Shown: positions 4,058-61,715, numbered from the stretch's first letter. The stretch is 64,000 nt of DNA from Candidatus Curtissbacteria bacterium (GCA_030647775.1 JAUSJC010000007.1:50038-114037); one strand, 5' to 3'. The notes: a model not told the origin generated them from the letters alone. Program-made: numbers and translations.

Positions 4058-4172
4058 ACAAATTATAATAGTGAGCGTAGTCGAACTACTCAGTGCTATA
4101 GCCCTTCGATAAGCTCAGGGTCATGACGCTTCGGTGAACTCAGTACTATAGCCAGTGCCAGTTTTATTTAGA
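4058..4172. repeat. repeat family A copy 1 (about 110 nt, internally sub-repeated 'CTTCG...ACTCAGT(A/G)CTATAGCC' units)
   Basis: Shares 'TTATAATNGTGAGCGNAGTCGAACTACTCAG' with the inverted copy at 63860..63960 and 'ACTCAGTACTATAGCCAGTGCC' with 5360..5392. Confidence 0.6.
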
Positions 4173-4282
4173 CCTAGTTTGATATAATCTGCCCAGTAAG
4201 GCTGGTATTGTAAACGCAAGAAATTGTTGGAAGAAGAGAATTTCTAACTAAGTGCCTAAGGTGGGGTATTGGCATACCGGCC

Positions 4283-4861
4283 TTGGCGGCATTGCGTCCA
4301 CTTTCAACACTTGCTGAAGGCGTAACAAATCAGGAATATCAGTTTCCCTGGTCTAGAGATGAAATTCTTTTTGGGCCAAACGCCGGATTTATAGAAGCGA
4401 AAAAAGGAATTCCTCTTGGTGTTTATGCCGCCAGCGGCATACGACCGGACCTTGTTAATTTAAGTATGGCACCCTGGAATAATTTAGCAAACAGTATGGG
4501 GAGAACTGATCTTTTTTACTTCGAAGAAAATCCATCTAGGGCAAAAATAATTATTGGTCAAAGTACGAAAGACTATAGCTATACTGTAGCAAATCCTGAT
4601 TTTAAAAGTCCCTATTTAAGATGCGATATTTACTTGGTGAATCAATGGATAGGAGTTATAACACATGAACTGGGCCATACACTTGGATTTGTTGATTTTA
4701 TTTATAAGGATACTGATCCCCGGGATTATTTCAATCCTAAACGTTGTGATCTTCCGGACAAACCTATTCACAGTATAATGGCACAAAATTTTATTGTTAC
4801 ACCAACAGTGTTGATTGGACCAGACGATGGAATCATGCTTAGGCTCGCGGGGTACGTTTAA
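4283..4861 (+). CDS. putative zinc metallopeptidase (HExxH, metzincin-like)
   Basis: 'HELGHTLGF' HExxHxxG motif followed by 'SIM' (possible Met-turn); start codon uncertain (TTG at 4283). Confidence 0.5.
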   Translation: MAALRPLSTLAEGVTNQEYQFPWSRDEILFGPNAGFIEAKKGIPLGVYAASGIRPDLVNLSMAPWNNLANSMGRTDLFYFEENPSRAKIIIGQSTKDYSYTVANPDFKSPYLRCDIYLVNQWIGVITHELGHTLGFVDFIYKDTDPRDYFNPKRCDLPDKPIHSIMAQNFIVTPTVLIGPDDGIMLRLAGYV

Positions 4862-5289: not shown

Positions 5290-5339
5290 TCTATCCAATT
5301 TAAATAATACATTCACACACAATTGTCCTGAGCGGGATC

Positions 5340-5392
5340 GAAGGATAGTCAACCCTTCGAAGTACTCAGTACTATAGCCAGTGCCGGCTCTA
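5340..5392. repeat. repeat family A copy 2 (partial)
   Basis: 'CCCTTCGAAGTACTCAGTACTATAGCCAGTGCCGG' matches the 3' half of copy 1. Confidence 0.55.
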
Positions 5393-5427
5393 TTTGACAA
5401 AGACTTCAAGTTTGTTAAACTCACCTG

Positions 5428-19622: not shown

Positions 19623-19778
19623 TAAAATACTCTCCTGATTTATAATTGTTTTGCGGGGTGTGGTTCAATATACAGTGCCATGCGGTTCTCGTTCTGCAAT
19701 GCAGAACTGTGGGCCTAGGTAGAATGCGGGATTAGTTGATCGGCTCAACATTCGCTTTCCCCGCCTGCCAGAGCCTAT

Positions 19779-19849: not shown

Positions 19850-19905
19850 CAGCATTGGCGGGCAGGCAAGCGAAAAAGAGGGGTTCGACTCCCCTATCCC
19901 GCTCC
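19850..19905 (+). other. tRNA-like 3' fragment (T-arm plus acceptor-like end) immediately after tRNA-Gly
   Basis: 'GAGGGGTTCGACTCCCCTATCCCGCTCC' resembles a T-arm and acceptor 3' strand with no D or anticodon arm; it carries the motif 'GGCAGGCAAGCG', also found at 22917 and 23588. Confidence 0.25.
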
Positions 19906-19958
19906 CGTCTTTCGCCGTCCGTCGCCTTTGGCTAAGGACGGCTACAGACGGTAGCTTA

Positions 19959-20201
19959 TTGATGTACTACGTTTATATACTTCAGAGTTCAAAATCTGGA
20001 ATTTTTTACTACGGTTATACGACCGATTTAAAGAAGAGATTTAAAGAACATAACGAAAGCAAGTCTAAATTCACGAGCGGTCATATACCCTGGAAGCTTG
20101 TTTTCTACTGTGCATTTATTGATAAGAAAAAGGCAAAAGATTTTGAACTTTATCTAAAATCAGGATCTGGCAAGGCGTTTGCCTATAAGAGATTAGTTTA
20201 A
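19959..20201 (+). CDS. stand-alone GIY-YIG nuclease-domain protein
   Basis: 'YYVYILQS...YYGYTTDLKKRFKEHN'; paralogous to the gene at 11608..11868. Confidence 0.65.
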   Translation: MMYYVYILQSSKSGIFYYGYTTDLKKRFKEHNESKSKFTSGHIPWKLVFYCAFIDKKKAKDFELYLKSGSGKAFAYKRLV

Positions 20202-22559: not shown

Positions 22560-22731
22560 GGGGGAATGACAACATTGGCGGTGGCTATCGGACGGTTTAT
22601 TTTGCCTCTCCTGGGCTTGATAAGCCCCCATTAATTTTCTAAAATGGGCTATAATCTGCATGAAGAAGCGGGGTTCGGAATAAGCATATCTTGCGATTCT
22701 AAGAATCTAAATTTGCGTCTCCCGCTCCAGC

Positions 22732-22834
22732 GCCCGCGTAGCTCAACGGATAGAGCAGTCGCGTTCTAAGCGATTGTGGGGGTACGCTTTTTCGCGTAGC
22801 GAAAAACTCGAGAAGTCAGATCCCTCCGCGGGCA
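22732..22834 (+). tRNA. tRNA-Arg(TCT)-like gene carrying a roughly 35-nt hairpin insertion in the T-loop
   Basis: Collinear with the canonical tRNA-Arg(TCT) at 29913..29985 through the acceptor, D-arm and anticodon arm (loop GUUCUAA). The T-loop TTCGAAT is replaced by 'T-ACGCTTTTTCGCGTAGCGAAAAACTCGAGAAGTCAG-AT'; the T-stem (GGGGG/CCCTC) and acceptor are preserved. Confidence 0.5.
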
Positions 22835-22914
22835 CAGGAAATTATGGCGTGTAGCGGAAGGATTGGGCTCTGCCCGATGCCTACCCACCCCGACTTTTCG
22901 CGCGCTAAATTCCA

Positions 22915-23000
22915 AAAGTACCGGGTGCAGGCAAGCGGAGCTGTACCAAAAAAATCCGAAGTGCTATTGCCCTGAGTTTATCGAATGGGCTAAAATTAGC
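22915..23000. repeat. 87-bp direct repeat, copy 1 (promoter/5'UTR-like), upstream of the DUF4258 toxin gene
   Basis: Shares 'ATCCGAAGTGCTATTGCCCTGAGTTTATCGAATGGGCTAAAATTAGC' (47/47) with 23583..23667, and the upstream 40 nt at about 80% identity. Confidence 0.7.
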
Positions 23001-23011
23001 CAACTTAGACG

Positions 23012-23266
23012 ATGAAAATTATTTATACACAACATTCGGAAGAAAAACTTAAACGGAGAGATATTAAGAAGTTCAAAATTAATAAAAAACTAATTAAATC
23101 AATTTTAAAAGATCCTCAAATTAAATCCAAAACAAAGTATGGTGATAGCTGCGCCCTGTCAGCTATCAATGGTGACCACGACATAAGAATTATCTATGAT
23201 ATAATAAGTAAAGATAATTCTAAGGTTATAACCTTTCATATCTCTAAAAGAGGCAGGTACGGATGA
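23012..23266 (+). CDS. DUF4258-family toxin (toxin of a DUF4258/DUF2283 TA pair)
   Basis: 'IIYTQHSEEKLKRRDI...IRIIYD...KVITFHISK' matches the DUF4258 pattern; 4-nt overlap (ATGA) with the downstream partner. Confidence 0.55.
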   Translation: MKIIYTQHSEEKLKRRDIKKFKINKKLIKSILKDPQIKSKTKYGDSCALSAINGDHDIRIIYDIISKDNSKVITFHISKRGRYG

Positions 23267-23475
23267 AATTAAAATATTACAAAAAAGACGACATTTTGGT
23301 TATGAATTTTTCCTCAAAAGCTGTTGAGGATTCGTATGAAGTGGAAAGCGCGATTTTAGAAGTCGATAAAGAGAACAATCCTGTATCACTAGAAATTCTG
23401 CATGCTTCCAACTTTTTTAATACAGCCTCCAAAGAACTTCCAATCGGAATCAAGCAAAAATTTTTCTCAGCCTAA
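23263..23475 (+). CDS. DUF2283-family antitoxin
   Basis: 'MKLKYYKKDDILVMNF...VSLEILHASN' matches DUF2283 (consensus 'MKIEYDKEADALYI...GIEILNAS'). Confidence 0.55.
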   Translation: MKLKYYKKDDILVMNFSSKAVEDSYEVESAILEVDKENNPVSLEILHASNFFNTASKELPIGIKQKFFSA

Positions 23476-23582
23476 CTCCTTGCGCTTTCGCACATATCAT
23501 CACAAACTGTGATGATATGGATTAAATACAATCGTAAAAGGTCACCATATATTTTTGCGCTGAGGATTCCCAAAACGCGCCA

Positions 23583-23667
23583 AAGTACCGGGCGCAGGCA
23601 AGCGGCCCTATCCCCAAAAAATCCGAAGTGCTATTGCCCTGAGTTTATCGAATGGGCTAAAATTAGC
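23583..23667. repeat. 87-bp direct repeat, copy 2, upstream of the 732-aa ORF
   Basis: See copy 1. Confidence 0.7.
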
Positions 23668-23687
23668 TCGTTTAAATTTATATGTAA

Positions 23688-25886
23688 ATGGCACAACAAT
23701 ACCTTGAATTAAAAACAAGCGAAGGCTCTGTAAGAAAATATCCAAACGTCATGTGGTTTCCTCGTTCCAAGACTGACCCCCAAGAAATAAGAGAGGTGCT
23801 TAAACTTGCCTTAAAAATACAAGACGAAAATTCTGATAAATATTTCAATGATAAATTATTGGGTGAACACATGGCACGAATAGGATCAATTAATGTCCTG
23901 GGGATGAAAGGGGAAGATTATATAAAATCGTACCAAGGAAAAAGTATTGGAGACGTTTCTTATATAACCAATGCTCGCATGTTGATGCGACTTTTTAGAT
24001 TCCTTGGTCTTGCCACTAGACTTGAAAGGGGGAAATACGCAATTACTGTACTTGGTAGAACCTATGTAAAATTTAATGGGGACTTCCCTTCTCAGCTAAA
24101 TGGGGAAAATGAAGAACAGATACTGCTACAATTACTCGCAAACTTTGCATTTTACTGCGTTAACGACGACAGCAAGTACAGAGATTCGTCTTTTCAAGTT
24201 AGGCCTTTCATTTGGCTACTCAACACATTAGCTATTGAGCCGCAATGCATTATTCAACTTATCGTAACCGCTTATGCTTCCAAAAGTGAAGGTTTTAATG
24301 AAATTAAAAGGATTAAAAATATTTTAAGTAATCTCAAATCAGGGAAAAGCACCCTTAAAGACGAGTTCACAAATCTAGGGCTGAATCCTAACGACTATAG
24401 CTGCGTTCATAATTTTTACGATAGTGCAAAGATATTAGTTTACTTGGGAATAAGCTTGGGGCTAGTAAAAAAAACCAAAAGCCCTACATATGGAAGAAAA
24501 ATTGCGGGAAACGCTAAGTATCTTAAAAACGCGTCTGCTTTTTACAATCTTACCGTAAAGGGCGAGAAGTATTTAGAAGAAAATATTCAGAAAAAACTCA
24601 TTTATTACTCCGACTTATACAAGGTACTAGGAAACAAAGACGTCCTTCAGTGCTCCTTTATATTAGCGGTGCTCAACACTTCAATCGGCGCTAAGAAAAT
24701 TGAGTCCATAAATATTAATTTTTTCAAAAAAATCTTGGGAAACAAATGGGAAAAATATACAAACTCTCTTAGAAAAAACCTGCAAATTGAAATAGAAATA
24801 AAAGATGGAAAAGTTGCTCTAAAAGATCGGATTTCATTCAACTTTTTCCAAAGCATGCCCCCCGAGTTTTTATACGATGAACCTATGAAAAATTGGTACA
24901 CTGTATTCATGGAGGAATTTAGTGACAAAAAATCTAAGTTATTAAATACAACCACATCAAAAATGGAAGAGCAATTTTCGGGAGAAATAACATCCAAATT
25001 TATACTAGACAAAGATAAAAATCTTGCATACGAAGTTCCTTCACTCACTCTCAAAGAAGCACAAGATTACATAAAGTACGAATACATGGACAATATTTTT
25101 GGGGGTCAAGATAGATATGCTAGTAGGATTTCTCCAACAAATTCAGTAATTCTAGTGGGTGATAAGGTTCATGTAGACAATGTCATTGACGCTCTTGACT
25201 TATTAATTCCGCTTAGACATCCAGACGAAAGGTTAAGAAAATTTATCGATGCCAACATTTCTCAGTTGCTAAAAACCTTTTTGTCCAGATCTGATACATG
25301 GGCAAAGGATCAACATTACGCATGGGTAAGAAACTGCTTTAGACTTTTTGGGGCTACGGCAATTTACTCCGGTTCTAGCGGCATGCTTTCTAGAGCAGAC
25401 ATTAGCATCATTGATCCATTTCTTGGTGGCGTTGAAGCAAAAAGCCCTAGTGAGAACAGGGGCAGTATAAACACAAAAGCAATTAGACAAGCACTCGATG
25501 CTAAAGTTCAGGTTGTAGATTTATATCCCGAAAAGAAAGGCATTCCAAAAATTGCGATAGCAATCGGAAGAAGAATTACTCCATTAGCAATTGCAGAAGA
25601 AAAGAAATGGCGATCAGGAGAAAATCAACCAGTACTTCTAATAACTGATGTAGTTCTTTACTATTTAACACTTAAGTCACTTGATATTCCCTTTGACGAC
25701 AAAGATTTAATTAGACTTTTTACCCAAAATGTAGGACTGCTCGATACGAAATCTTTGAGTGTATCCCTTGAAGAAATAATGAATAACAAAAAAATAGATA
25801 GTCAGGTTAAAGAGAAAATTAGAGAGGAGCTCAATAACTTAGGGGGATTGGTAAGTGGCTCGATTGAGGGAGCAATCGAGGAGTAA
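23688..25886 (+). CDS. large hypothetical protein (732 aa); candidate restriction endonuclease or defense effector partnered with two DNA methyltransferases
   Basis: No recognised family. A possible PD-(D/E)xK-like 'IIDPFLGGVEAK' lies near residue 570. Convergent with, and overlapping by 56 nt, the first MTase gene. Confidence 0.35.
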   Translation: MAQQYLELKTSEGSVRKYPNVMWFPRSKTDPQEIREVLKLALKIQDENSDKYFNDKLLGEHMARIGSINVLGMKGEDYIKSYQGKSIGDVSYITNARMLMRLFRFLGLATRLERGKYAITVLGRTYVKFNGDFPSQLNGENEEQILLQLLANFAFYCVNDDSKYRDSSFQVRPFIWLLNTLAIEPQCIIQLIVTAYASKSEGFNEIKRIKNILSNLKSGKSTLKDEFTNLGLNPNDYSCVHNFYDSAKILVYLGISLGLVKKTKSPTYGRKIAGNAKYLKNASAFYNLTVKGEKYLEENIQKKLIYYSDLYKVLGNKDVLQCSFILAVLNTSIGAKKIESININFFKKILGNKWEKYTNSLRKNLQIEIEIKDGKVALKDRISFNFFQSMPPEFLYDEPMKNWYTVFMEEFSDKKSKLLNTTTSKMEEQFSGEITSKFILDKDKNLAYEVPSLTLKEAQDYIKYEYMDNIFGGQDRYASRISPTNSVILVGDKVHVDNVIDALDLLIPLRHPDERLRKFIDANISQLLKTFLSRSDTWAKDQHYAWVRNCFRLFGATAIYSGSSGMLSRADISIIDPFLGGVEAKSPSENRGSINTKAIRQALDAKVQVVDLYPEKKGIPKIAIAIGRRITPLAIAEEKKWRSGENQPVLLITDVVLYYLTLKSLDIPFDDKDLIRLFTQNVGLLDTKSLSVSLEEIMNNKKIDSQVKEKIREELNNLGGLVSGSIEGAIEE

Positions 25887-26640
25887 TTTCATTTAATCTT
25901 TTCTCCGCCATTTCTACATATTTAGGATTTAATTCAAAACCAATATATTTTCGATCATTCATTCTTGCACTTACGCATTCACTCCCTGACCCCACGAATG
26001 GCATCAACAATGTGTCTCCCTGATTTGAAAAATGGTTGATGATTTTATGACATATGGCTAACGGTTTTTGCGTAGGATGATCAACTTTCTCGTTAGCAAA
26101 TCTTTTACCCGCTAACGTAGGAATTTCCCATATATCTCCACCATGCTTTCCTTCAGGATGTGGCGTCCAGACCTTACCATTTTTTATAATTTTATTCCTT
26201 AATCTCTCCGTACTTTTATAAGGTTCCCTAATCGTATGGTAAGTGTAATCTTTACCTTTATAAAACCATAATAGAGGTTCGTAAGCGGCTGCAGGCGCGC
26301 GTCTATACATTGAAAAGTTATTTTCATAATGCCAAATAAATAATCTCCCATAGAATAACCCTATATCGTATAAGTATGCCTGAATGTACCCAATATTATG
26401 ATGAATACCATATACAAAAAGAGAACCATTTGGCTTTAGGACTCGCTTTGATTCCTTTAGCCATTTTTTCATCCACTTAAACCATTCTTCATGATTCTTG
26501 AGATTCCATTTTTCACCATTTCCAAAATCTTTTTCTATTCCATATGGAGGATCTGCAATAATTAGGTTAATTGATTCATTGTCAATTTTTTTATATAAAT
26601 CAAGACAATCACCGGTATAAATTTTATTTAAATTAAACAT
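25831..26640 (-). CDS. DNA methyltransferase, beta-class N6A/N4C family (DPPY)
   Basis: Motif IV 'ADPPYG' near the N-terminus, motif I 'MPFVGSGSE' near the C-terminus (beta-class order). Confidence 0.8.
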   Translation of the reverse strand: MFNLNKIYTGDCLDLYKKIDNESINLIIADPPYGIEKDFGNGEKWNLKNHEEWFKWMKKWLKESKRVLKPNGSLFVYGIHHNIGYIQAYLYDIGLFYGRLFIWHYENNFSMYRRAPAAAYEPLLWFYKGKDYTYHTIREPYKSTERLRNKIIKNGKVWTPHPEGKHGGDIWEIPTLAGKRFANEKVDHPTQKPLAICHKIINHFSNQGDTLLMPFVGSGSECVSARMNDRKYIGFELNPKYVEMAEKRLNEITPRLLPQSSHLPIPLSY

Positions 26641-26641
26641 G

Positions 26642-27499
26642 CTACTTATTGTTCTGCAAGATTAGTATATATTGATTGTGAATATTGGGAACATAAGAAA
26701 AAGGATATCCATAGGGAAAGATTTTTTTGCGGCTTTGATAGAGTATAGTTATTCCTTTCAATTTATAATTCTTTTGTTCTAATTTGTTAGCAAGATCTGC
26801 ATGGAACATATAATATCTATCTTTGTGTCTAAAATCGCTAACTACTATACATAAATATTTCTTTGGTTTTAAAATCCGACTACAATCATTGAAAAAACCG
26901 GACAAAATTTCAAGAAACTGATCATAATCAGTAATATTTCCTAAATCTTCTTTAAGTTCACTATATTTTGTGTCTAGACCATTTGAAATCCGAGTGGAAA
27001 TGACTTTATGGTCAGCCTTTTTATTTAAAATACTCCAGTACGGAGGACTCGTTACAATAAAATCAAAATGGTCATCTTTAAAATCTTCGACCACTTTCAG
27101 CGCATCTCCTTGAATAACAGACTGGTCTTTATTGTCAAATAAACCATTGAGTTCAGTCTCAAGTCTCTTTTTCGTTAACTCCACATATTTAGGAACTAAC
27201 TCAATACCGACACCCCTTCGATTTAATATAGCGCAGGCCTTAAGAGTAGATCCTACTCCAACAAAAGGGTCTAATACTTTCTGCCCTGATTTCGTAAAGA
27301 ACCTGATTAGCCTTCCCACGTCTTGGAAAGAATATGGAGCGGGATGTTGTTTCTCAATTTGAGCTTCTTTATGGCCTGCCCCTAATCCTTTTTGAACATA
27401 CACCGAGATTGTTTCGGGAATCCATTCTGAGGCTGAAAGATCATTAAGATTATTTACAAGTTTCCTCTTCAACTGCCCATCGTTTATATTTAAACCCAT
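26642..27499 (-). CDS. DNA methyltransferase (SPPY motif, probable N4-cytosine type)
   Basis: Motif I 'DPFVGVGST' then motif IV 'TSPPYW'; SPPY/SPPF is characteristic of m4C methyltransferases. Confidence 0.7.
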   Translation of the reverse strand: MGLNINDGQLKRKLVNNLNDLSASEWIPETISVYVQKGLGAGHKEAQIEKQHPAPYSFQDVGRLIRFFTKSGQKVLDPFVGVGSTLKACAILNRRGVGIELVPKYVELTKKRLETELNGLFDNKDQSVIQGDALKVVEDFKDDHFDFIVTSPPYWSILNKKADHKVISTRISNGLDTKYSELKEDLGNITDYDQFLEILSGFFNDCSRILKPKKYLCIVVSDFRHKDRYYMFHADLANKLEQKNYKLKGITILYQSRKKIFPYGYPFSYVPNIHNQYILILQNNK

Positions 27500-27671
27500 T
27501 GTTATTATTAAATTTATTCTACACAGTATCTAACCACAATTAACACACAACATTAAATATACGAATAAAACCCGAAGATGTCAAGCGTGGACTTGACCCT
27601 AATTAAACCTAGTTGGGTTGTGTAACAACAAAAAACCAAGTAAGATCTATCACAAATCTTAAAATAATTAG

Positions 27672-27938
27672 ATGAACCCACTAGAACACATAGAAAAAAT
27701 TCAACAAGTAACAGACATCAACGAAAAAATAAGGTTGCGAACAGAATTTAAAGAAAAATATCCAAACGAATTTGAAGAATACATGAAGGCAATACCCAAA
27801 CAAAAACAGAGACCGCCACTTTGCTATGGTTGCAAGCATTTTATAAAAAGCGGTGATTGCGAATTAAATCTATTCCCGATTGGGAATGTTTTTAAGGATG
27901 TTATTAATTACACATGTCCCTCTTTTGAGAAAAAATAA
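27672..27938 (+). CDS. hypothetical small Cys-containing protein
   Basis: 88-aa ORF containing 'CYGCKHF...C...C'. Confidence 0.3.
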   Translation: MNPLEHIEKIQQVTDINEKIRLRTEFKEKYPNEFEEYMKAIPKQKQRPPLCYGCKHFIKSGDCELNLFPIGNVFKDVINYTCPSFEKK

Positions 27939-28051
27939 ACGGAAATTGACACCTTTCCTCCCAAATAATAATCTATACTTGTGTTAAAAACCCTGGAAAA
28001 AGAAAAAGCATATAAGGTTGGCCGGAAGAAATTGCAATTGTGGATGGGAAA

Positions 28052-28639
28052 TTAGGAATTATTCTTTAAGATTCCTTCCTTTTGCAGTCTTCTTAAAATA
28101 ACAGCGTCTGAAACTTGAAAAATTTCAGGTAGATCCTGCACAGCTGGAGCAATGATTTCCGGTAATTCCATGGATGGAATTTTTCCGAGCCGCTTTTTTA
28201 ATTCTTCAAGCAATTGCTCAGTTGGAACCAAAACCAATCCCGCAAAAGTATGTGCTTGTATTTCAGTAAACTTGTAAACTTGCTCATCTATTCGATCATG
28301 AGATGTAAGATATTCTTCAAAATTATTCGGTCCGTACTTTTCGTACCATTCCTTGTGCAATATTAAATGACCAACTTCATGGGCGATGGAAAATCTCGTT
28401 CTTTCGGGAAAACGCGTGAAATAATTTTCATCAACCGTTATTTGGGTAAAGTCCGAACTTATAAATGCATCTACTCCAATTAATGATCTAATGCCTGGTA
28501 CCGCGAACAGAGCAATTCCCATTTTGCTTTCAACTATATTTTCAATTGGAATTGGTAGGGTTAGCGAGGAATGATATGTCTGTAAAAATTTATCTGCTGC
28601 TCGTGCTACATCTACTAATCTTAAATTCGGTCCTTGCAT
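28052..28639 (-). CDS. ImmA/IrrE-family metallo-endopeptidase (DUF955)
   Basis: 'SIAHEVGHLILH' HExxH motif in the DUF955 context; immediately downstream of an XRE HTH gene. Confidence 0.7.
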   Translation of the reverse strand: MQGPNLRLVDVARAADKFLQTYHSSLTLPIPIENIVESKMGIALFAVPGIRSLIGVDAFISSDFTQITVDENYFTRFPERTRFSIAHEVGHLILHKEWYEKYGPNNFEEYLTSHDRIDEQVYKFTEIQAHTFAGLVLVPTEQLLEELKKRLGKIPSMELPEIIAPAVQDLPEIFQVSDAVILRRLQKEGILKNNS

Positions 28640-28642
28640 CCA

Positions 28643-29038
28643 TTATTCCTTCTTACCGACATCATTGAGAAGCTTGATTAATTGGATAATTTTCTTTTTA
28701 TCCAACTTTTCACCTCTAGCAGTTCTGTAAAAGGCAGGCAAAATAGAAAGAATGTGTGGACTTTTAAGCAAATCCTCTGGGAGTTTTCCTTTTGCTGCAT
28801 GAGCAAGATCAAAGAATATTGTCCATTCTTCGCTGTCGCGCGGAATTTTTAAGGCTAATGCGTATCCTTCAAGTTTTTGTTTATCTATGCTTGGAGGAAG
28901 AATATTTCTTTCAAGTCTGCTGATGTTACCCGGGTCGTAGCTATACCTTTCACAAAAAGATCTCAAGGTAAACCCTAAGGTTATTCTTTTTAATCTGAAA
29001 AATTCTCCGAAGGTTTGAGCAGTGTCTTGACTTTTCAC
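28643..29038 (-). CDS. XRE-family helix-turn-helix transcriptional regulator
   Basis: N-terminal 'FGEFFRLKRITLGFTLRSFCERYSYDPGNISRLERN' HTH_3-like segment; 4-nt gap before the ImmA partner. Confidence 0.6.
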   Translation of the reverse strand: MKSQDTAQTFGEFFRLKRITLGFTLRSFCERYSYDPGNISRLERNILPPSIDKQKLEGYALALKIPRDSEEWTIFFDLAHAAKGKLPEDLLKSPHILSILPAFYRTARGEKLDKKKIIQLIKLLNDVGKKE

Positions 29039-29129
29039 AGGAAGTGTTGTAAAAATATTACAACGTTATTTTAACGCAGCACTTGACTATTGTCAAGTCG
29101 ACAAAAAATTAGAAAGGCGGTGAATAAAA

Positions 29130-29339
29130 ATGGCAGTATTTAAGATCTACAAAGACGTTCAAGGCTATTACCGATGGCGATTCCGAGCAGCTAACAATAA
29201 AATCATCGCCGACAGCGGTGAAGGATACGTAAAGTGGCAAGATGCGAAAGCAGGAATAGATTTTATTAAGAAATATGCACCTGATGCCGAAGTTAAAGAC
29301 TTAACCGCACAAAAAACTGCTCGAGGACTCTTTAGTTAA
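29130..29339 (+). CDS. DUF1508 (YegP-like) protein
   Basis: 'FKIYKDVQGYYRWRFRAANNKIIADSGEGY' matches the DUF1508 repeat. Confidence 0.55.
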   Translation: MAVFKIYKDVQGYYRWRFRAANNKIIADSGEGYVKWQDAKAGIDFIKKYAPDAEVKDLTAQKTARGLFS

Positions 29340-29391
29340 AGGAGGTGAAGTCGATGAAATTTATACAAATTGCGGTTACCCGCGCAGGGGA

Positions 29392-29553
29392 AATGTATTT
29401 AGTATTTAGGATTGTGGTTTAGTCCCAGTACTAGATTCCGGGCTTGGAGTCGGCGAGGGAATTACTGTTGGATTAAATACGGGTTCGACAAGCTCACTGC
29501 TATAACTTGTACCTCCGCGATATCTGTCACCTTAAGCACGTTGGGATTTTAGC
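29392..29553. repeat. repeat family C copy 1 (about 160 nt)
   Basis: About 80% identical to 31528..31667. It contains the hairpin ACAAGCT-N9-AGCTTGT and the conserved 'CCGCGATATCTGTCACCTTA'. Confidence 0.65.
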
Positions 29554-29831: not shown

Positions 29832-29877
29832 GCGCCTGTAGCTCAACGGATATCAGCAGCGCTTCGCGCTCTGATAT
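29832..29877 (+). other. tRNA 5' fragment (acceptor plus D-arm of the tRNA-Arg family) fused to an unrelated hairpin
   Basis: 'GCGCCTGTAGCTCAACGGATA' is identical to the 5' 21 nt of the tRNA-Arg-like genes, then 'TCAGCAGCGCTTCGCGCTCTGATA'. Confidence 0.4.
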
Positions 29878-29912: not shown

Positions 29913-29985
29913 GCGCCTGTAGCTCAATGGATAGAGCACTCGCGTTCTAAGCGATTGGTTGGGGGTTCGAATCCCTCCAGGCGCA
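29913..29985 (+). tRNA. tRNA-Arg(TCT), canonical copy
   Basis: Acceptor GCGCCTG/CAGGCGC, anticodon loop GUUCUAA, T-loop GGTTCGAATCC. Confidence 0.75.
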
Positions 29986-29995
29986 CATAAAATTA

Positions 29996-30075
29996 ATCGC
30001 GTTCTAAGCGAATGATTGGGGGTTCGCTTTTTTCGCGCAGCGAAAAACTCGAGAAGTCAGATCCCTCCAGGCGCA
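29996..30075 (+). other. tRNA-Arg(TCT) 3'-half fragment (anticodon stem to 3' end) carrying the T-loop hairpin insertion; att-like
   Basis: 'TCGCGTTCTAAGCGAATGATTGGGGGTTCG-CTTTTTTCGCGCAGCGAAAAACTCGAGAAGTCAG-ATCCCTCCAGGCGCA'; the same insertion as at 22732..22834 with compensatory changes in its stem. Confidence 0.5.
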
Positions 30076-30244
30076 CACACGTCTTGCTCCGACGTAAACG
30101 CTTCAGTTTCTCTCATGTATAATATTTTTAGTGAAGATTTCCGGCGGGCTTGTTGTTAATCTTATTGCAGGTTTAAAAGGACTTATGTCAAAAACATATA
30201 CCAAAAATTAAGAAAGATGTTTGTGGAGATGAATAAAAATTACT

Positions 30245-31527: not shown

Positions 31528-31667
31528 GATGTATTTAGTTTAGGGCCTGGAAGCGCCAGATGTTGACTCTACCGGGCTGGGAGTCGGTGAGGAGATTACG
31601 GTGGCGTTAAATACGGGTTCGACAAGCTCACTGCTATAGCTTGTACCTCCGCGATATCTGTCACCTT
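31528..31667. repeat. repeat family C copy 2
   Basis: See copy 1. Confidence 0.65.
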
Positions 31668-31904
31668 ATTTCAATAGACTTTCTTTGGAAGTTCAAAATA
31701 GAAATCTTATGAGGTGTGTTTATAGCTCTTGGAGCAAAGATTAAAACGACTCTTGTGGTGCTAATCTGTCGTATTCCGTAGATAATTTTTTTTGCAACTT
31801 ATTCGAACCACGTACCGCTTCTTTAATTATTCGTTTCTTTTCTTTAGCGGGTAATTCGAAGAAGTTTGTACCTTTGTCTTTTTTGATCAAGAAATTGAGT
31901 ACTT

Positions 31905-32659: not shown

Positions 32660-32742
32660 GAGGGACAGGAGAAGAAATCATTGTTGCATTGAATACTTGA
32701 ACCTCGGCGATATCTGTCACCTTAAGCACGTTGGTATTTTAC
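32660..32742. repeat. repeat family C copy 3 (internally deleted)
   Basis: 'ACCTCGGCGATATCTGTCACCTTAAGCACGTTGGTATTTTA' matches the 3' 45 nt of copy 1 (including the 'AAGCACGTTGG' tail); the central hairpin is missing. Confidence 0.55.
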
Positions 32743-39753: not shown

Positions 39754-39832
39754 GAACTAGTGTCAGGTATAAGAGAGCTTATTGTCAACTCCGTTGATAA
39801 GCACGTATCAGGTGTCAAGTCCGCCCACTATT

Positions 39833-39926
39833 GTCATCCTGAATTTATTTCAGGATCTTGGTGAAGATGCTGAAATATACAGTGCCATGCGCCCTCGCTT
39901 CGCTCGGGGCTAGAGTTCAGCATGAC
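39833..39926. repeat. repeat family B copy 1 (about 95-nt double-hairpin element with 11-bp terminal inverted repeats)
   Basis: 'GTCATCCTGAA-TTTAT-TTCAGGATC...GATGCTGAA-ATATACAGTGCCATGCGCCC...-TTCAGCATGAC'; about 85% identical to 42888..42985. Confidence 0.7.
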
Positions 39927-42876: not shown

Positions 42877-42887
42877 GATTGATTTGT

Positions 42888-42985
42888 GTCATCCTGAACT
42901 CGTTTCAGGATCTCTTTTGCGTTAGATGCCGAAATATACAGTGCCATGCGCCCTTGCTTCGCTCGGAGCTAAAGTTCGGCATGAC
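42888..42985. repeat. repeat family B copy 2
   Basis: See copy 1; located immediately upstream of the uvrA start. Confidence 0.7.
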
Positions 42986-55794: not shown

Positions 55795-56987
55795 TTATTT
55801 TTAGATTGAACTTGTGATGTTAAACTTCCGCGAGCCAATTTTACACCAATGATGTCGCCAAGGACAACGCCCTCAATGCTTTTGACGATCCGGCCACGGC
55901 TATCGGTGGTAATAGAATAGCCGCGGGAAAGAGTATTTTCGGGCGAGAGAATTCGCAGTGATTTGGCAAGGTTTTCCAATTTAGTGGAAGCGTCGGTAAT
56001 TAAATATTTTTGCTGATGGGCAAAAGCCTGGGCAATGATTGTCAGACGATGGGGCAGATCCTTAAAATAAGATTTTACTTGCAGAAGCTGGCGGAAATTA
56101 TAGTCAAGCTTTTGAAAATTGGCAGAGAAAAAATAGTCGGCACGGATTTTAAGGCGCGTGCCAATGCTTTCCAGTTTATCTATGATCAGCAAATAGCCGT
56201 TTGTGACGATATTGGCGGCGTCCGTTGGGGTTGAAGCGCGGCGGTCGGCCACCCATTCGGCGAGCGATTCATTGGCTTCATGGCCAATGGCAACAACGGT
56301 TGGAGTTTTCATCTTAAAAATTGCTCGGGCAACCGCCTCATCGTTGAAAGCCGCCAAATCCTCCAGCGATCCGCCGCCGCGGGTAATGACGACTACGTCG
56401 AACCCCTCCCGATCGACCTTTGGAAGAATCGCAAGAAGCTGTGGGATTGATTTTATTCCCTGCACGCGGACATCGGCAGTTGCTAGATCGATAATCGGAA
56501 ATTTATCAGTCGTGTGGCGTTTAAAATCATTCCAGGCGTCGGATCCGGCAGACGTTACGACGCAAACTTTTTTAGGGTAAAGTGGGATTTCTTTTTTGTG
56601 TTGCTGATCAAATAGACCTTCGCCTTTTAATTTTTTGATTAATTCCTCAAGTTTTTTAGCTAAAACGCCTTCACCGATGGCTTCCACTTTCTTAATTTTG
56701 AACTGGTACTGACCGCGGGGCTCGTAGAGCGACAAGAATCCGAAGGCTAGGATTTTTTGGCCAACGAGTTCCGATCCGCCAAAATCTTTAAAGATTGACC
56801 CGTCGGCAACACAGGGGAGGAGGGCATTATCGTCTTTTAAATCCAAATAAAAGAAGCGCCAGTTGGGGTTTTCTTTAAAGGTCGTAACTTCTCCTTCGAC
56901 CCAGAGCTCCATTTGCTCCAGGGTCTCTTTGGCGAAATAATTGACTTCGGAGACGGAGTAGATTTTGCGGTCTTTGTCGGTTTTCAT
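55791..56987 (-). CDS. xseA: exodeoxyribonuclease VII large subunit
   Basis: N-terminal OB fold 'YSVSEVNYFAKETLE...WVEGEV', central catalytic region. Confidence 0.85.
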   Translation of the reverse strand: MKTDKDRKIYSVSEVNYFAKETLEQMELWVEGEVTTFKENPNWRFFYLDLKDDNALLPCVADGSIFKDFGGSELVGQKILAFGFLSLYEPRGQYQFKIKKVEAIGEGVLAKKLEELIKKLKGEGLFDQQHKKEIPLYPKKVCVVTSAGSDAWNDFKRHTTDKFPIIDLATADVRVQGIKSIPQLLAILPKVDREGFDVVVITRGGGSLEDLAAFNDEAVARAIFKMKTPTVVAIGHEANESLAEWVADRRASTPTDAANIVTNGYLLIIDKLESIGTRLKIRADYFFSANFQKLDYNFRQLLQVKSYFKDLPHRLTIIAQAFAHQQKYLITDASTKLENLAKSLRILSPENTLSRGYSITTDSRGRIVKSIEGVVLGDIIGVKLARGSLTSQVQSKNK

Positions 56988-60263: not shown

Positions 60264-61715
60264 ATGGACAACAATCAACGAGTCATTATCCATGCGGACT
60301 TGAATAGTTTCTTTGCAACGGCCGAACAGCAAACAAACCCTGCCCTACGCGGTAAACCGGTAGGAGTTATCAAAGCCCCGGGCAGAACTTGCATTATCGC
60401 CGCTTCCGTTGAAGCTAAAAAGTTTGGCGTCGGTACTGGCAGCCGCGTTTACGATGCCAAGAAACTCTGTCCCGAGATTATTCTGGTGCCGGCTAACTTT
60501 AGCAAATACGAGAAAATGACTTACCGTTTTATTGATATTTGCAAAACTTATTCACCGGCTTGCGAGGTCTTTTCACTGGACGAGTGTTTTATCGATGTAA
60601 CGGAAACGGAATTTATCTGGCCGCGCCCGCCACGCAATGCCAGTCTTGAACAACTCGCTTGGCTGGAAATGGGGAAAGCATTGCGAGGCAATGCGGGCGG
60701 GAAGAATGTTTTTAACATTGCCTTTGAAATTAAGGACAGGTTAAGGCGAGAAGTCGGCGATTATATGACTTGCTCCGTCGGTGTTTCCCACAACAGGTTT
60801 TTGGCCAAGCTTGCTTCTTCCCAAATTAAACCCGATGGGCTTTTTTGGATAACGGACGATAATAAACTTGAAGTTTTGGATAGAAGCAAACTGACGGATG
60901 TCTGCGGCCTTGGGGACGGACTGTATCAGCATCTGACCCGCGTCGGGATTGATAGTTTTCCAATACTTAGGGCAAAATCCATAACATTTTTGCAAGAACA
61001 TTTCGGGCCGCACTGGTCTTTACATCTTTATAACTTAGCGCGGGGAATTGATGATTCAGGGGTAGGATCGATTCTCGAAATTCCCGACGCCAAAAGCGTT
61101 GGGCGCACTTATACAACCCACCGCAATTTATATAGAAAAGAAGAAGTTTGGCGCTTAACCCGTAATCTATGTGAGGAGACGGCGGCCAAAGCCCGCAAGA
61201 TGCATTTGGCGGGCCGGTACGTAGGGTTTTGTCTTCGCGGCGGGCCTGCCCGCATCGCTACCCGCCAACAGCTACACAGTTCTGGGCGGGTTGCTGGCGG
61301 GGAAGTGTCAGAGTGGGGACATTTGACTTTAAAAAATTATATTAACGACGGCAAAATTCTTTTTGATCTATGCTTGCAAATTTCTAAGAACTGGAACTTC
61401 TTCCAACAGCCCTTCGACTTCGCTCAGGTCTTCGACTCCGAGGTCGCTCAGACTCGAGGAGGTCTTCGACCTTATGTGCGTTTTTGCGGAGTAACACTGG
61501 GGATGCTTACCAAATCGGCGTATCTCCCCTCTCCCCTTTTCGTTTCTGATAGCCGGCGGGTAGATCTAATAAAAACAATTGACAAGGTTAACGGCAAGTA
61601 CGGAGACTACACCATTTACCCGGGCCAACTGCTTGGAACGAGCTTAATTCGGCCGGAGGTAAACGGTTTTTTCGGCGACCGCAAATACCGGTTAGACTTT
61701 GCAAGCAAAAATTAA
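60264..61715 (+). CDS. dinB: Y-family DNA polymerase (DinB/Pol IV-like)
   Basis: 'VIIHADLNSFFATAEQ' catalytic Asp motif, 'SLDECFIDVT', 'SVGVSHNRFLAKLAS'; probable start at 'MDNNQRVII'. Confidence 0.8.
   Translation: MDNNQRVIIHADLNSFFATAEQQTNPALRGKPVGVIKAPGRTCIIAASVEAKKFGVGTGSRVYDAKKLCPEIILVPANFSKYEKMTYRFIDICKTYSPACEVFSLDECFIDVTETEFIWPRPPRNASLEQLAWLEMGKALRGNAGGKNVFNIAFEIKDRLRREVGDYMTCSVGVSHNRFLAKLASSQIKPDGLFWITDDNKLEVLDRSKLTDVCGLGDGLYQHLTRVGIDSFPILRAKSITFLQEHFGPHWSLHLYNLARGIDDSGVGSILEIPDAKSVGRTYTTHRNLYRKEEVWRLTRNLCEETAAKARKMHLAGRYVGFCLRGGPARIATRQQLHSSGRVAGGEVSEWGHLTLKNYINDGKILFDLCLQISKNWNFFQQPFDFAQVFDSEVAQTRGGLRPYVRFCGVTLGMLTKSAYLPSPLFVSDSRRVDLIKTIDKVNGKYGDYTIYPGQLLGTSLIRPEVNGFFGDRKYRLDFASKN

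Follow-up and report, generated by a model that had tools for sequence, protein, structure and literature searches.

The stretch of DNA analysed here (64 kb, hereafter the window) belongs to a 117,946-bp contig of a Candidatus Curtissbacteria MAG. Between 22.7 and 33.3 kb it carries an island beside tRNA-Arg genes. The cargo of this island comprises a putative toxin-antitoxin pair, a restriction module, an ImmA/IrrE-HTH pair, DUF1508, a PDC-S05-like gene, a PIN module and a zeta toxin, and its sequence is divided up by several repeat families. The pair is bracketed by two copies of a direct repeat on the plus strand: copy 1 (22915-23000) stops 11 nt short of the toxin start codon, and copy 2 (23582-23667) 20 nt short of the ATG of a gene for a 732-aa protein.

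The two copies align without gaps over 86 nt, with 80 of the 86 bases identical (93%). The original prediction had described an 87-bp direct repeat with an identical core that ended 12 to 20 nt before the two ATGs. The two-copy repeat is real, but its length is 86 nt and copy 2 begins at 23582. Of the six mismatches, one is a SNP at repeat position 12, and the other five cluster at positions 25-34, a 10-nt segment that occupies 22939-22948 in copy 1 and 23606-23615 in copy 2. This placement makes the last 52 nt (22949-23000 and 23616-23667) the identical core, and not 47 nt as had been proposed. Since five of the six differences form a single 10-nt patch, which may reflect one event, a mismatch gradient toward the 5' end of the repeat was dropped as evidence. 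The right edge is sharp: the repeat breaks off 11 nt short of the toxin ATG (23012) and 20 nt short of that of the 732-aa gene (23688); at the junctions, TTAGC is followed by CAACTTAGACG in the toxin leader and by TCGTTTAAAT in the leader of the 732-aa gene. A longer repeat was rejected, as neither the weak similarity upstream (reached by 184 of 500 shuffles) nor the downstream extension (28 of 500 shuffles) was significant. Within the window the 52-mer has exactly two matches at up to three mismatches, with zero expected. A candidate third copy at 22636-22655 was discarded as well, since only the 13-nt string AATGGGCTAWAAT matches there and 7 of 300 shuffles equal it. Exact-match scans found neither a 36-mer nor a 30-mer of the core in public genome and metagenome contigs, and neither a 27-mer of the core nor the GC-rich 5' part of the repeat in viral contigs. 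An independent contig from Logan (L001, SRR13727527) matches window positions 23638-29502 without a single difference in 5865 nt. Its first 30 nt are the end of copy 2, and its other end lies within a different local repeat. A break of this kind is what real repeats cause in a short-k assembly graph (k=31 for Logan).

An 11-mer of the repeat, GCAGGCAAGCG, recurs after tRNA-Gly, as had been pointed out before. It is present at 19862-19872, yet the implied link is probably due to chance, because the match does not extend beyond 11 nt, is equalled in 3 of 300 shuffles (about 1%) for that one pair of regions, and was picked post hoc. The region that follows tRNA-Gly (19851-19958) contains a remnant resembling a tRNA T-arm and 3' acceptor (GAGGGGTTCGACTCCCCTATCCCGCTCC), and the next gene is that of a small GIY-YIG nuclease (19959-20201).

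Each copy of the repeat contains a sigma-70-like motif on the plus strand, TTGCCC and TAAAAT with an 18-nt spacer (22967-22996 in copy 1 and 23634-23663 in copy 2), which has 9 of 12 consensus matches; neither of the two intergenic regions has any other promoter-like site on the plus strand. GC directly precedes the −10 box (context GCTAAAAT). The string GCTAWAAT is also found, on the minus strand in each case, before tRNA-Gln (2514), the zeta toxin gene (32620) and the gene starting at 56987 (57054). The −10 boxes end 15 nt before the toxin start codon and 24 nt before that of the 732-aa gene, so both leaders would be very short. From these motifs we infer that both copies may act as promoters and that copy 2 would drive the 732-aa gene. 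The idea that the pair sits between two copies of a promoter-like block agrees with both the repeat alignment and the presence of TTGCCC-18-TAAAAT in each copy. A structured RNA was rejected: the repeat folds no better than shuffled sequences (plus-strand z-scores of −0.03 and −1.22, and positive values for the minus strand), and an Rfam search around it returned no family beyond the tRNA-like gene described below.

The toxin gene (23012-23266, plus strand, 84 aa) and its DUF2283 partner, the putative antitoxin (23263-23475, plus strand, 70 aa), are co-oriented and overlap by 4 nt at the toxin stop. The partner matches Pfam DUF2283 above the cut-off (E 6e-11), and the toxin scores 18.1 bits against Pfam DUF4258, under the cut-off of 25 bits; four of 23 members of the toxin family match DUF4258, the best with E 3.2e-5. 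The AF2 model of the toxin has a pLDDT of 91, and its best Foldseek matches are YoeB/ParE (6n90) and BrnT (3u97), with probability 1.00 and TM 0.5-0.6. Across YoeB/ParE, BrnT and HigB2 the probabilities range from 0.98 to 1.00, but the E-values are only 5e-3 to 3e-2. Together, the model and this weak match point to a putative toxin with a RelE/ParE (BECR) fold, distantly related to DUF4258. DUF4258 has been placed in the RelE/ParE superfamily with its activity unknown (PMC11980606), and our literature search returned no paper that names both DUF4258 and DUF2283. As in type II toxin-antitoxin modules, two small, adjacent and co-oriented genes are conserved as a pair: the DUF2283 gene adjoins the toxin gene in every related locus examined, and at 13 further genomic sites, whose neighbours are unrelated, the two genes invariably occur together. 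DNA homology to 12 of these relatives runs from 23009/23012 to about 23471 only, that is, approximately from start to stop, which implies that the repeat is not part of the conserved pair. No related pairs were found in viral contigs, and a lookup of the window's own antitoxin and response regulator proteins returned nothing on record. The 106 nt between the antitoxin stop and copy 2 contain a perfect 11-bp hairpin, ATATCATCACA-AAC-TGTGATGATAT (23494-23518, plus strand), which may be a terminator or an operator.

The 732-aa protein (23688-25886, plus strand) has no sequence match in Pfam, NCBIfam, PADLOC or the PDB. Its AF2 model (pLDDT 85) is most similar in Foldseek searches to FokI (E 1e-10) and the nickase Nt.BspD6I (E 3e-7), and a D..ExK motif (SRADISIIDPFLGGVEAKSP) is conserved in a 21-sequence alignment of the family, which makes it a predicted FokI-like type IIS restriction endonuclease. 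The family has about 55 members and no Pfam domain, and is represented by loci L005-L019. Two N6_N4 DNA methyltransferase genes (269 and 285 aa, domain search) follow on the minus strand at 25831-27499, and the same three-gene arrangement is present in 12 other loci (L006-L016 and L018). With its FokI-like predicted endonuclease and two adjacent methyltransferases, the trio resembles type IIS systems and is a predicted type IIS restriction-modification module. In none of the 12 other loci does the toxin-antitoxin pair lie upstream, and their upstream DNA is unrelated to the repeat. The pair and the restriction-modification module are independent mobile units. Controller (C) proteins control restriction enzyme genes. 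At the corresponding position directly upstream of the restriction enzyme, three loci carry a small HTH gene, representing two distinct sequences (L017, and L007, which equals L019), and the window carries the toxin-antitoxin pair. Unlike in controller systems, the restriction enzyme of the window has its own copy of the predicted promoter of the pair, and shared regulation of the two is speculation. The upstream HTH genes of L017 and L007/L019 are of the XRE type and of a MerR/excisionase type (62 aa), and they are placed like a controller protein.

The wider island is marked by tRNA-derived repeats. A tRNA-Arg 3' half is present twice, at 22759-22836 and 29997-30077 (89% identity over 81 nt), with a 7.2-kb block of defence genes in between. 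The first lies in a tRNA-Arg(TCT)-like gene (22732-22834) with a hairpin-containing 36-nt insert in its T-loop, which scores 41.8 bits against Rfam tRNA and is missed by ARAGORN. The same 36-nt insert occurs in the 3'-half copy (29989-30077) right after an intact tRNA-Arg(TCT) (29913-29986), and a 5' tRNA fragment lies just upstream of the intact gene (29836-29852). Tandem accretion of elements at tRNA genes produces islands flanked by tRNA-derived repeats. The window is similar in that the 7.2-kb block lies between copies of an approximately 80-nt tRNA-Arg 3' half and is accompanied by several repeat families, and it differs in that the 86-bp repeat is not tRNA-derived and in that no integrase, recombinase or transposase domain was detected in the proteins scanned between 18.8 and 34.7 kb. 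A second repeat family is present on the minus strand at 29438-29551, 31572-31685 and 32695-32741 (97 and 47 nt, 91-94% identical). Its copies 1 and 3 come after a TAAAAT box, segments are shared among the three copies in a mosaic fashion, and the family brackets the zeta toxin operon and an operon of a small ORF and PIN, a repeat-module-repeat order like that of the 86-nt repeat. Further away, a 99-nt direct repeat (39832-39926 and 42887-42985, 84% identical) brackets a 979-aa gene on the minus strand; it holds hairpins, for instance ATCCTGAA..TTCAGGAT, and its motif ATATACAGTGCCATGCG is also found upstream of tRNA-Gly (19668-19684).

A comparison of genomes with and without the pair had been suggested as a check on its insertion. 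We searched for an empty site by way of the neighbouring response regulator and found none in the collections covered: the closest relatives (L002-L004) have regulators that are 76-83% identical, and overall the closest relatives are 67-83% identical at the protein level. L002-L004 share the kinase-regulator pair and not the downstream region, L004 sharing just 100 nt after the regulator gene. At this position (22630-22727) the window has a conserved non-coding element that includes GGGCTATAAT, ends in TCTCCCGCTC and is kept in L004 at 4252-4321, next to the 83% identical regulator. Synteny with L004 breaks exactly where the tRNA-Arg-like gene starts in the window.

We compared the 120 nt upstream of each related toxin with the 250 nt after each antitoxin. 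Two null distributions served as references, one built from 3000 placements drawn at random within these loci (mean 10.9, 99th percentile 18) and one of 265 real genes (99th percentile 22.2). The window scored 74, followed by L028 (25), L033 (22), L029 (20.5), L043 (19) and L032 (18), and eight other related sites had no flanking repeat (L020, L031, L034, L035, L036, L048 and L049 being among those without one). The repeats of L024, L032 and L043, at first counted as support, were later discounted because they are made of a generic intergenic element, GAACTTTTTGGGTTC, which has two to four copies per locus there and is absent from the window. This leaves locus-specific flanking repeats at four of 14 independent sites (the window, L028, L033 and L029) and none at the other ten, which supports the view that such repeats are commoner at related pairs than expected by chance. 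In L028 and L033 the duplicated block is promoter-like. In another lineage, represented by the loci L042-L047, L024-L027 and L032, an identical pair is followed by different cargo genes in different samples, and each such cargo is then followed by a 58-nt element in one orientation (GTGCCGACACGTAGACGwTGTTAGAACTTTTTGGGTTCArAAyCAAAATAACTTT), an arrangement that resembles a cassette array. In L043 the pair is found again 2.3 kb further downstream; this second copy has 96.6% identity and starts 67 nt upstream of the toxin.

The repeat of L029 corresponds to the last 17 codons of the upstream gene, and the same site is found in decayed form in L030. Here the two copies can be compared as coding sequence. 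They differ at 15 of 18 codons, 13 of the differences being synonymous and two non-synonymous, and by codon position the differences number 2, 2 and 13, so that 13 of 17 are at third positions. Had the target been freshly duplicated and the displaced copy left to decay, first and second codon positions should have changed as well, and under this scenario the pattern has P ~0.025 even with a generous model. The mostly synonymous divergence therefore suggests that the copies diverged as working gene ends in separate genomes and were joined by recombination afterwards. The loci that encode the toxin protein P0186 have an identical pair and left flank and differ between samples in their right-hand cargo, and homology-anchored integration of incoming DNA fits both these loci and L029. 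The synonymous-site argument is not transferable to the window repeat, which is non-coding.

We consider it somewhat better than an even bet (a probability of roughly 0.55) that two cargo modules were stacked by recombination, each keeping a copy of the same promoter-carrying upstream block. The 86-bp repeat would then be a recently duplicated intergenic block carrying a promoter within a tRNA-Arg-associated defence and toxin-antitoxin island. An island with such mixed cargo and several repeat families is in keeping with this history. The pair and the restriction-modification module would each first have sat behind their own version of this block, and recombination would have stacked the two modules in tandem. 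In this event the shared sequence may have anchored one end, with illegitimate joining at the other; alternatively, a single crossover may have brought in a small circle. The pair would thereby have been left between two copies of the block, with both modules retaining a promoter. Here the promoter activity, the direction of events and the mechanism of recombination are all what we infer from the arrangement.

The original prediction had left the choice between duplication of the target and recombination through the repeat. The second is the more likely, because the L029 copies differ by 13 synonymous and only two non-synonymous changes, and a fresh target duplication does not fit that pattern. 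For the window, a de novo duplication would mean that a promoterless pair inserted behind the promoter of the restriction enzyme by cut-and-fill, copying 86 bp that have since drifted slightly. The repeat-insert-repeat layout with its sharp right edge, the restriction of homology among related pairs to the ORFs, the 93% identity of the copies, which would fit a recent event, and the flanking repeats of 33-86 nt at other sites can all be read in this way. Against it, the insert encodes two small proteins only, has no inverted repeats at its ends and brings along 106 nt of unrelated 3' sequence; no transposase or recombinase is encoded nearby among the proteins scanned; and L029, the sole site at which the question can be put to the test, shows divergence under purifying selection. 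To our knowledge, 86 bp also far exceeds the duplications known from transposition. We regard such a duplication as improbable.

The block could also be the pair's own upstream region, a copy of which was recruited before the restriction enzyme when that module landed downstream; tandem duplication of the pair, with later replacement of the second copy, is a possible route. The unrelated upstream DNA of the restriction modules elsewhere, three of which have an HTH gene at that position, indeed implies that the promoter of the restriction enzyme in the window was acquired locally. Moreover, the repeat motif GGGCTAAAATTAG precedes the related pair of L032 and, in a form that lacks one base or stretch by a single deletion, that of L024, and two copies of a related pair stand 2.3 kb apart in L043. 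Yet the nucleotide homology between pairs stops at the toxin ATG, GGGCTAAAAT-like strings are a generic intergenic family in those genomes, and no remnant of a second pair is present downstream of copy 2, so we hold capture of this kind to be doubtful too.

A further possibility is that two copies of a dispersed REP- or MITE-like element came to lie before both genes by chance, unrelated to the arrival of the pair. The core of the repeat does belong to such a family. Its segment 22955-22992 is about 81% identical over approximately 37 nt to the minus-strand segment 4099-4134, which scored highest among 1252 tiles (21.5, where the mean was 9.0 and the sd 1.6), and it is built of CCTGAG-N4-TCGAAGG-GCTA units that are found, in both orientations, at further places in the window as well as in other candidate-phyla-radiation loci. 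Repeats flank other genes of these genomes too, and the membership of the core in a dispersed family means that the two copies may have been seeded independently. However, other family members share just those 37 nt or so at about 81%, and the two copies share 86 nt at 93%, including 52 nt without a mismatch, and agree in orientation and in their sharp edge. The repeat lacks terminal inverted repeats and a significant fold, and no other full-length copy exists within the 64 kb. We therefore think it quite unlikely that chance placed the copies; a core built of dispersed units points to the repeat as a recent local duplication of one instance of a short-unit family. Widespread occurrence of the repeat had been named as the observation that would make it a generic promoter element. 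The full unit is limited to two copies in 64 kb and is absent from the scanned collections, but its core is part of a dispersed family, and by these sequence comparisons the repeat is neither a unique sequence nor a widespread 86-nt element. CCTGAG-N-TCGAAGG units occur in the window at 4060-4180 (minus strand), 5327-5395 and about 61400-61450 (minus strand), and in intergenic DNA of loci L024, L030, L033 and L042-L046. They often form tandem arrays, whose period is close to 25 nt, or inverted pairs, and near-identical CCTGAG..TCGAAGG units (for example CCCTGAGTTTATCRAAKGG) are shared between different genomes. Finally, it is very improbable that the assembly of the metagenome misjoined two strain variants in tandem, one with the block before the pair and one with the block before the restriction enzyme. 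In favour of such an error, the sequence comes from a MAG, the break of the Logan unitig falls exactly at the repeat and cargo varies between strains at comparable sites. Against it, copy 2 has a distinctive 5' part with six differences and is tied to the antitoxin end by unique sequence, and an assembler or a read spanning more than 52 identical bases resolves the path.

Stacking of two modules through a shared block can be set beside several known systems. Homology-facilitated illegitimate recombination after DNA uptake reportedly joins incoming DNA to a genome. With one end anchored by homology and the other joined illegitimately, it can produce a direct repeat of which one copy is the donor's version of the anchor and the other the resident one. 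It fits the nearly exclusively synonymous divergence in L029; for the window, the presumed anchor and junction are read from the sequence. In common with integron cassettes, the units are small, often promoterless ORFs in one orientation separated by repeats, and toxin-antitoxin pairs are frequent cargo, as in the cassettes of chromosomal integrons. The 86-nt repeat differs from attC sites in that it lacks their imperfect palindrome, and the island proteins scanned included no integrase; an attC or integron reading was rejected on the grounds that there is no palindrome, no RYYYAAC...GTTRRRY pair and no significant fold. Unlike transposable elements with a target-site duplication, the arrangement combines an 86-nt repeat with an insert that has neither inverted repeats nor a transposase. 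Unlike REP and MITE sequences, the full 86-nt unit is not dispersed, only the 37-nt core (~81%) and the short units. A further comparison is with promoter reuse by putative mobile promoters, defined as highly similar upstream regulatory DNA before non-homologous genes within one genome and with no known mobile element (Nijveen, Matus-Garcia and van Passel 2012, PMC3575422). The window resembles these in that nearly identical 86-nt sequences, here with a predicted promoter, precede the toxin gene and the non-homologous 732-aa gene. It is unlike them in that there are just two copies, adjacent and in tandem, which bracket one small module, and in that no dispersed copies were found in the 64 kb or in the genome, metagenome and viral collections scanned. 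We saw no sign of the 86-nt block moving on its own.

Taken by itself, the locus is a tidy and fairly ordinary case of promoter reuse and module stacking in a defence island, and of modest interest; it would be of more interest if the pattern of flanking repeats were general for toxin-antitoxin cargo in reduced genomes. If the stacking reading is right, the locus illustrates on a small scale how defence islands grow in tiny, integrase-poor genomes, through recombination at common upstream DNA that leaves every module with a promoter. The toxin-antitoxin pair and the restriction enzyme lie behind identical predicted promoters and could be co-expressed or co-regulated. L029 offers a simple sequence test, which could find wide use, for telling a fresh duplication of the target apart from recombination between lineages. 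More tentatively, and in our view at rather long odds, small toxin-antitoxin ORF pairs of this DUF4258-like/DUF2283 family, perhaps PIN and zeta modules too, may spread and stack into the defence islands of the candidate phyla radiation without a dedicated recombinase. A shared promoter block or gene end would anchor one side of the incoming DNA, and the other side would be joined illegitimately; such events would leave 30-90-bp repeats that represent the donor and resident versions of the anchor, and each stacked module would inherit a working promoter.
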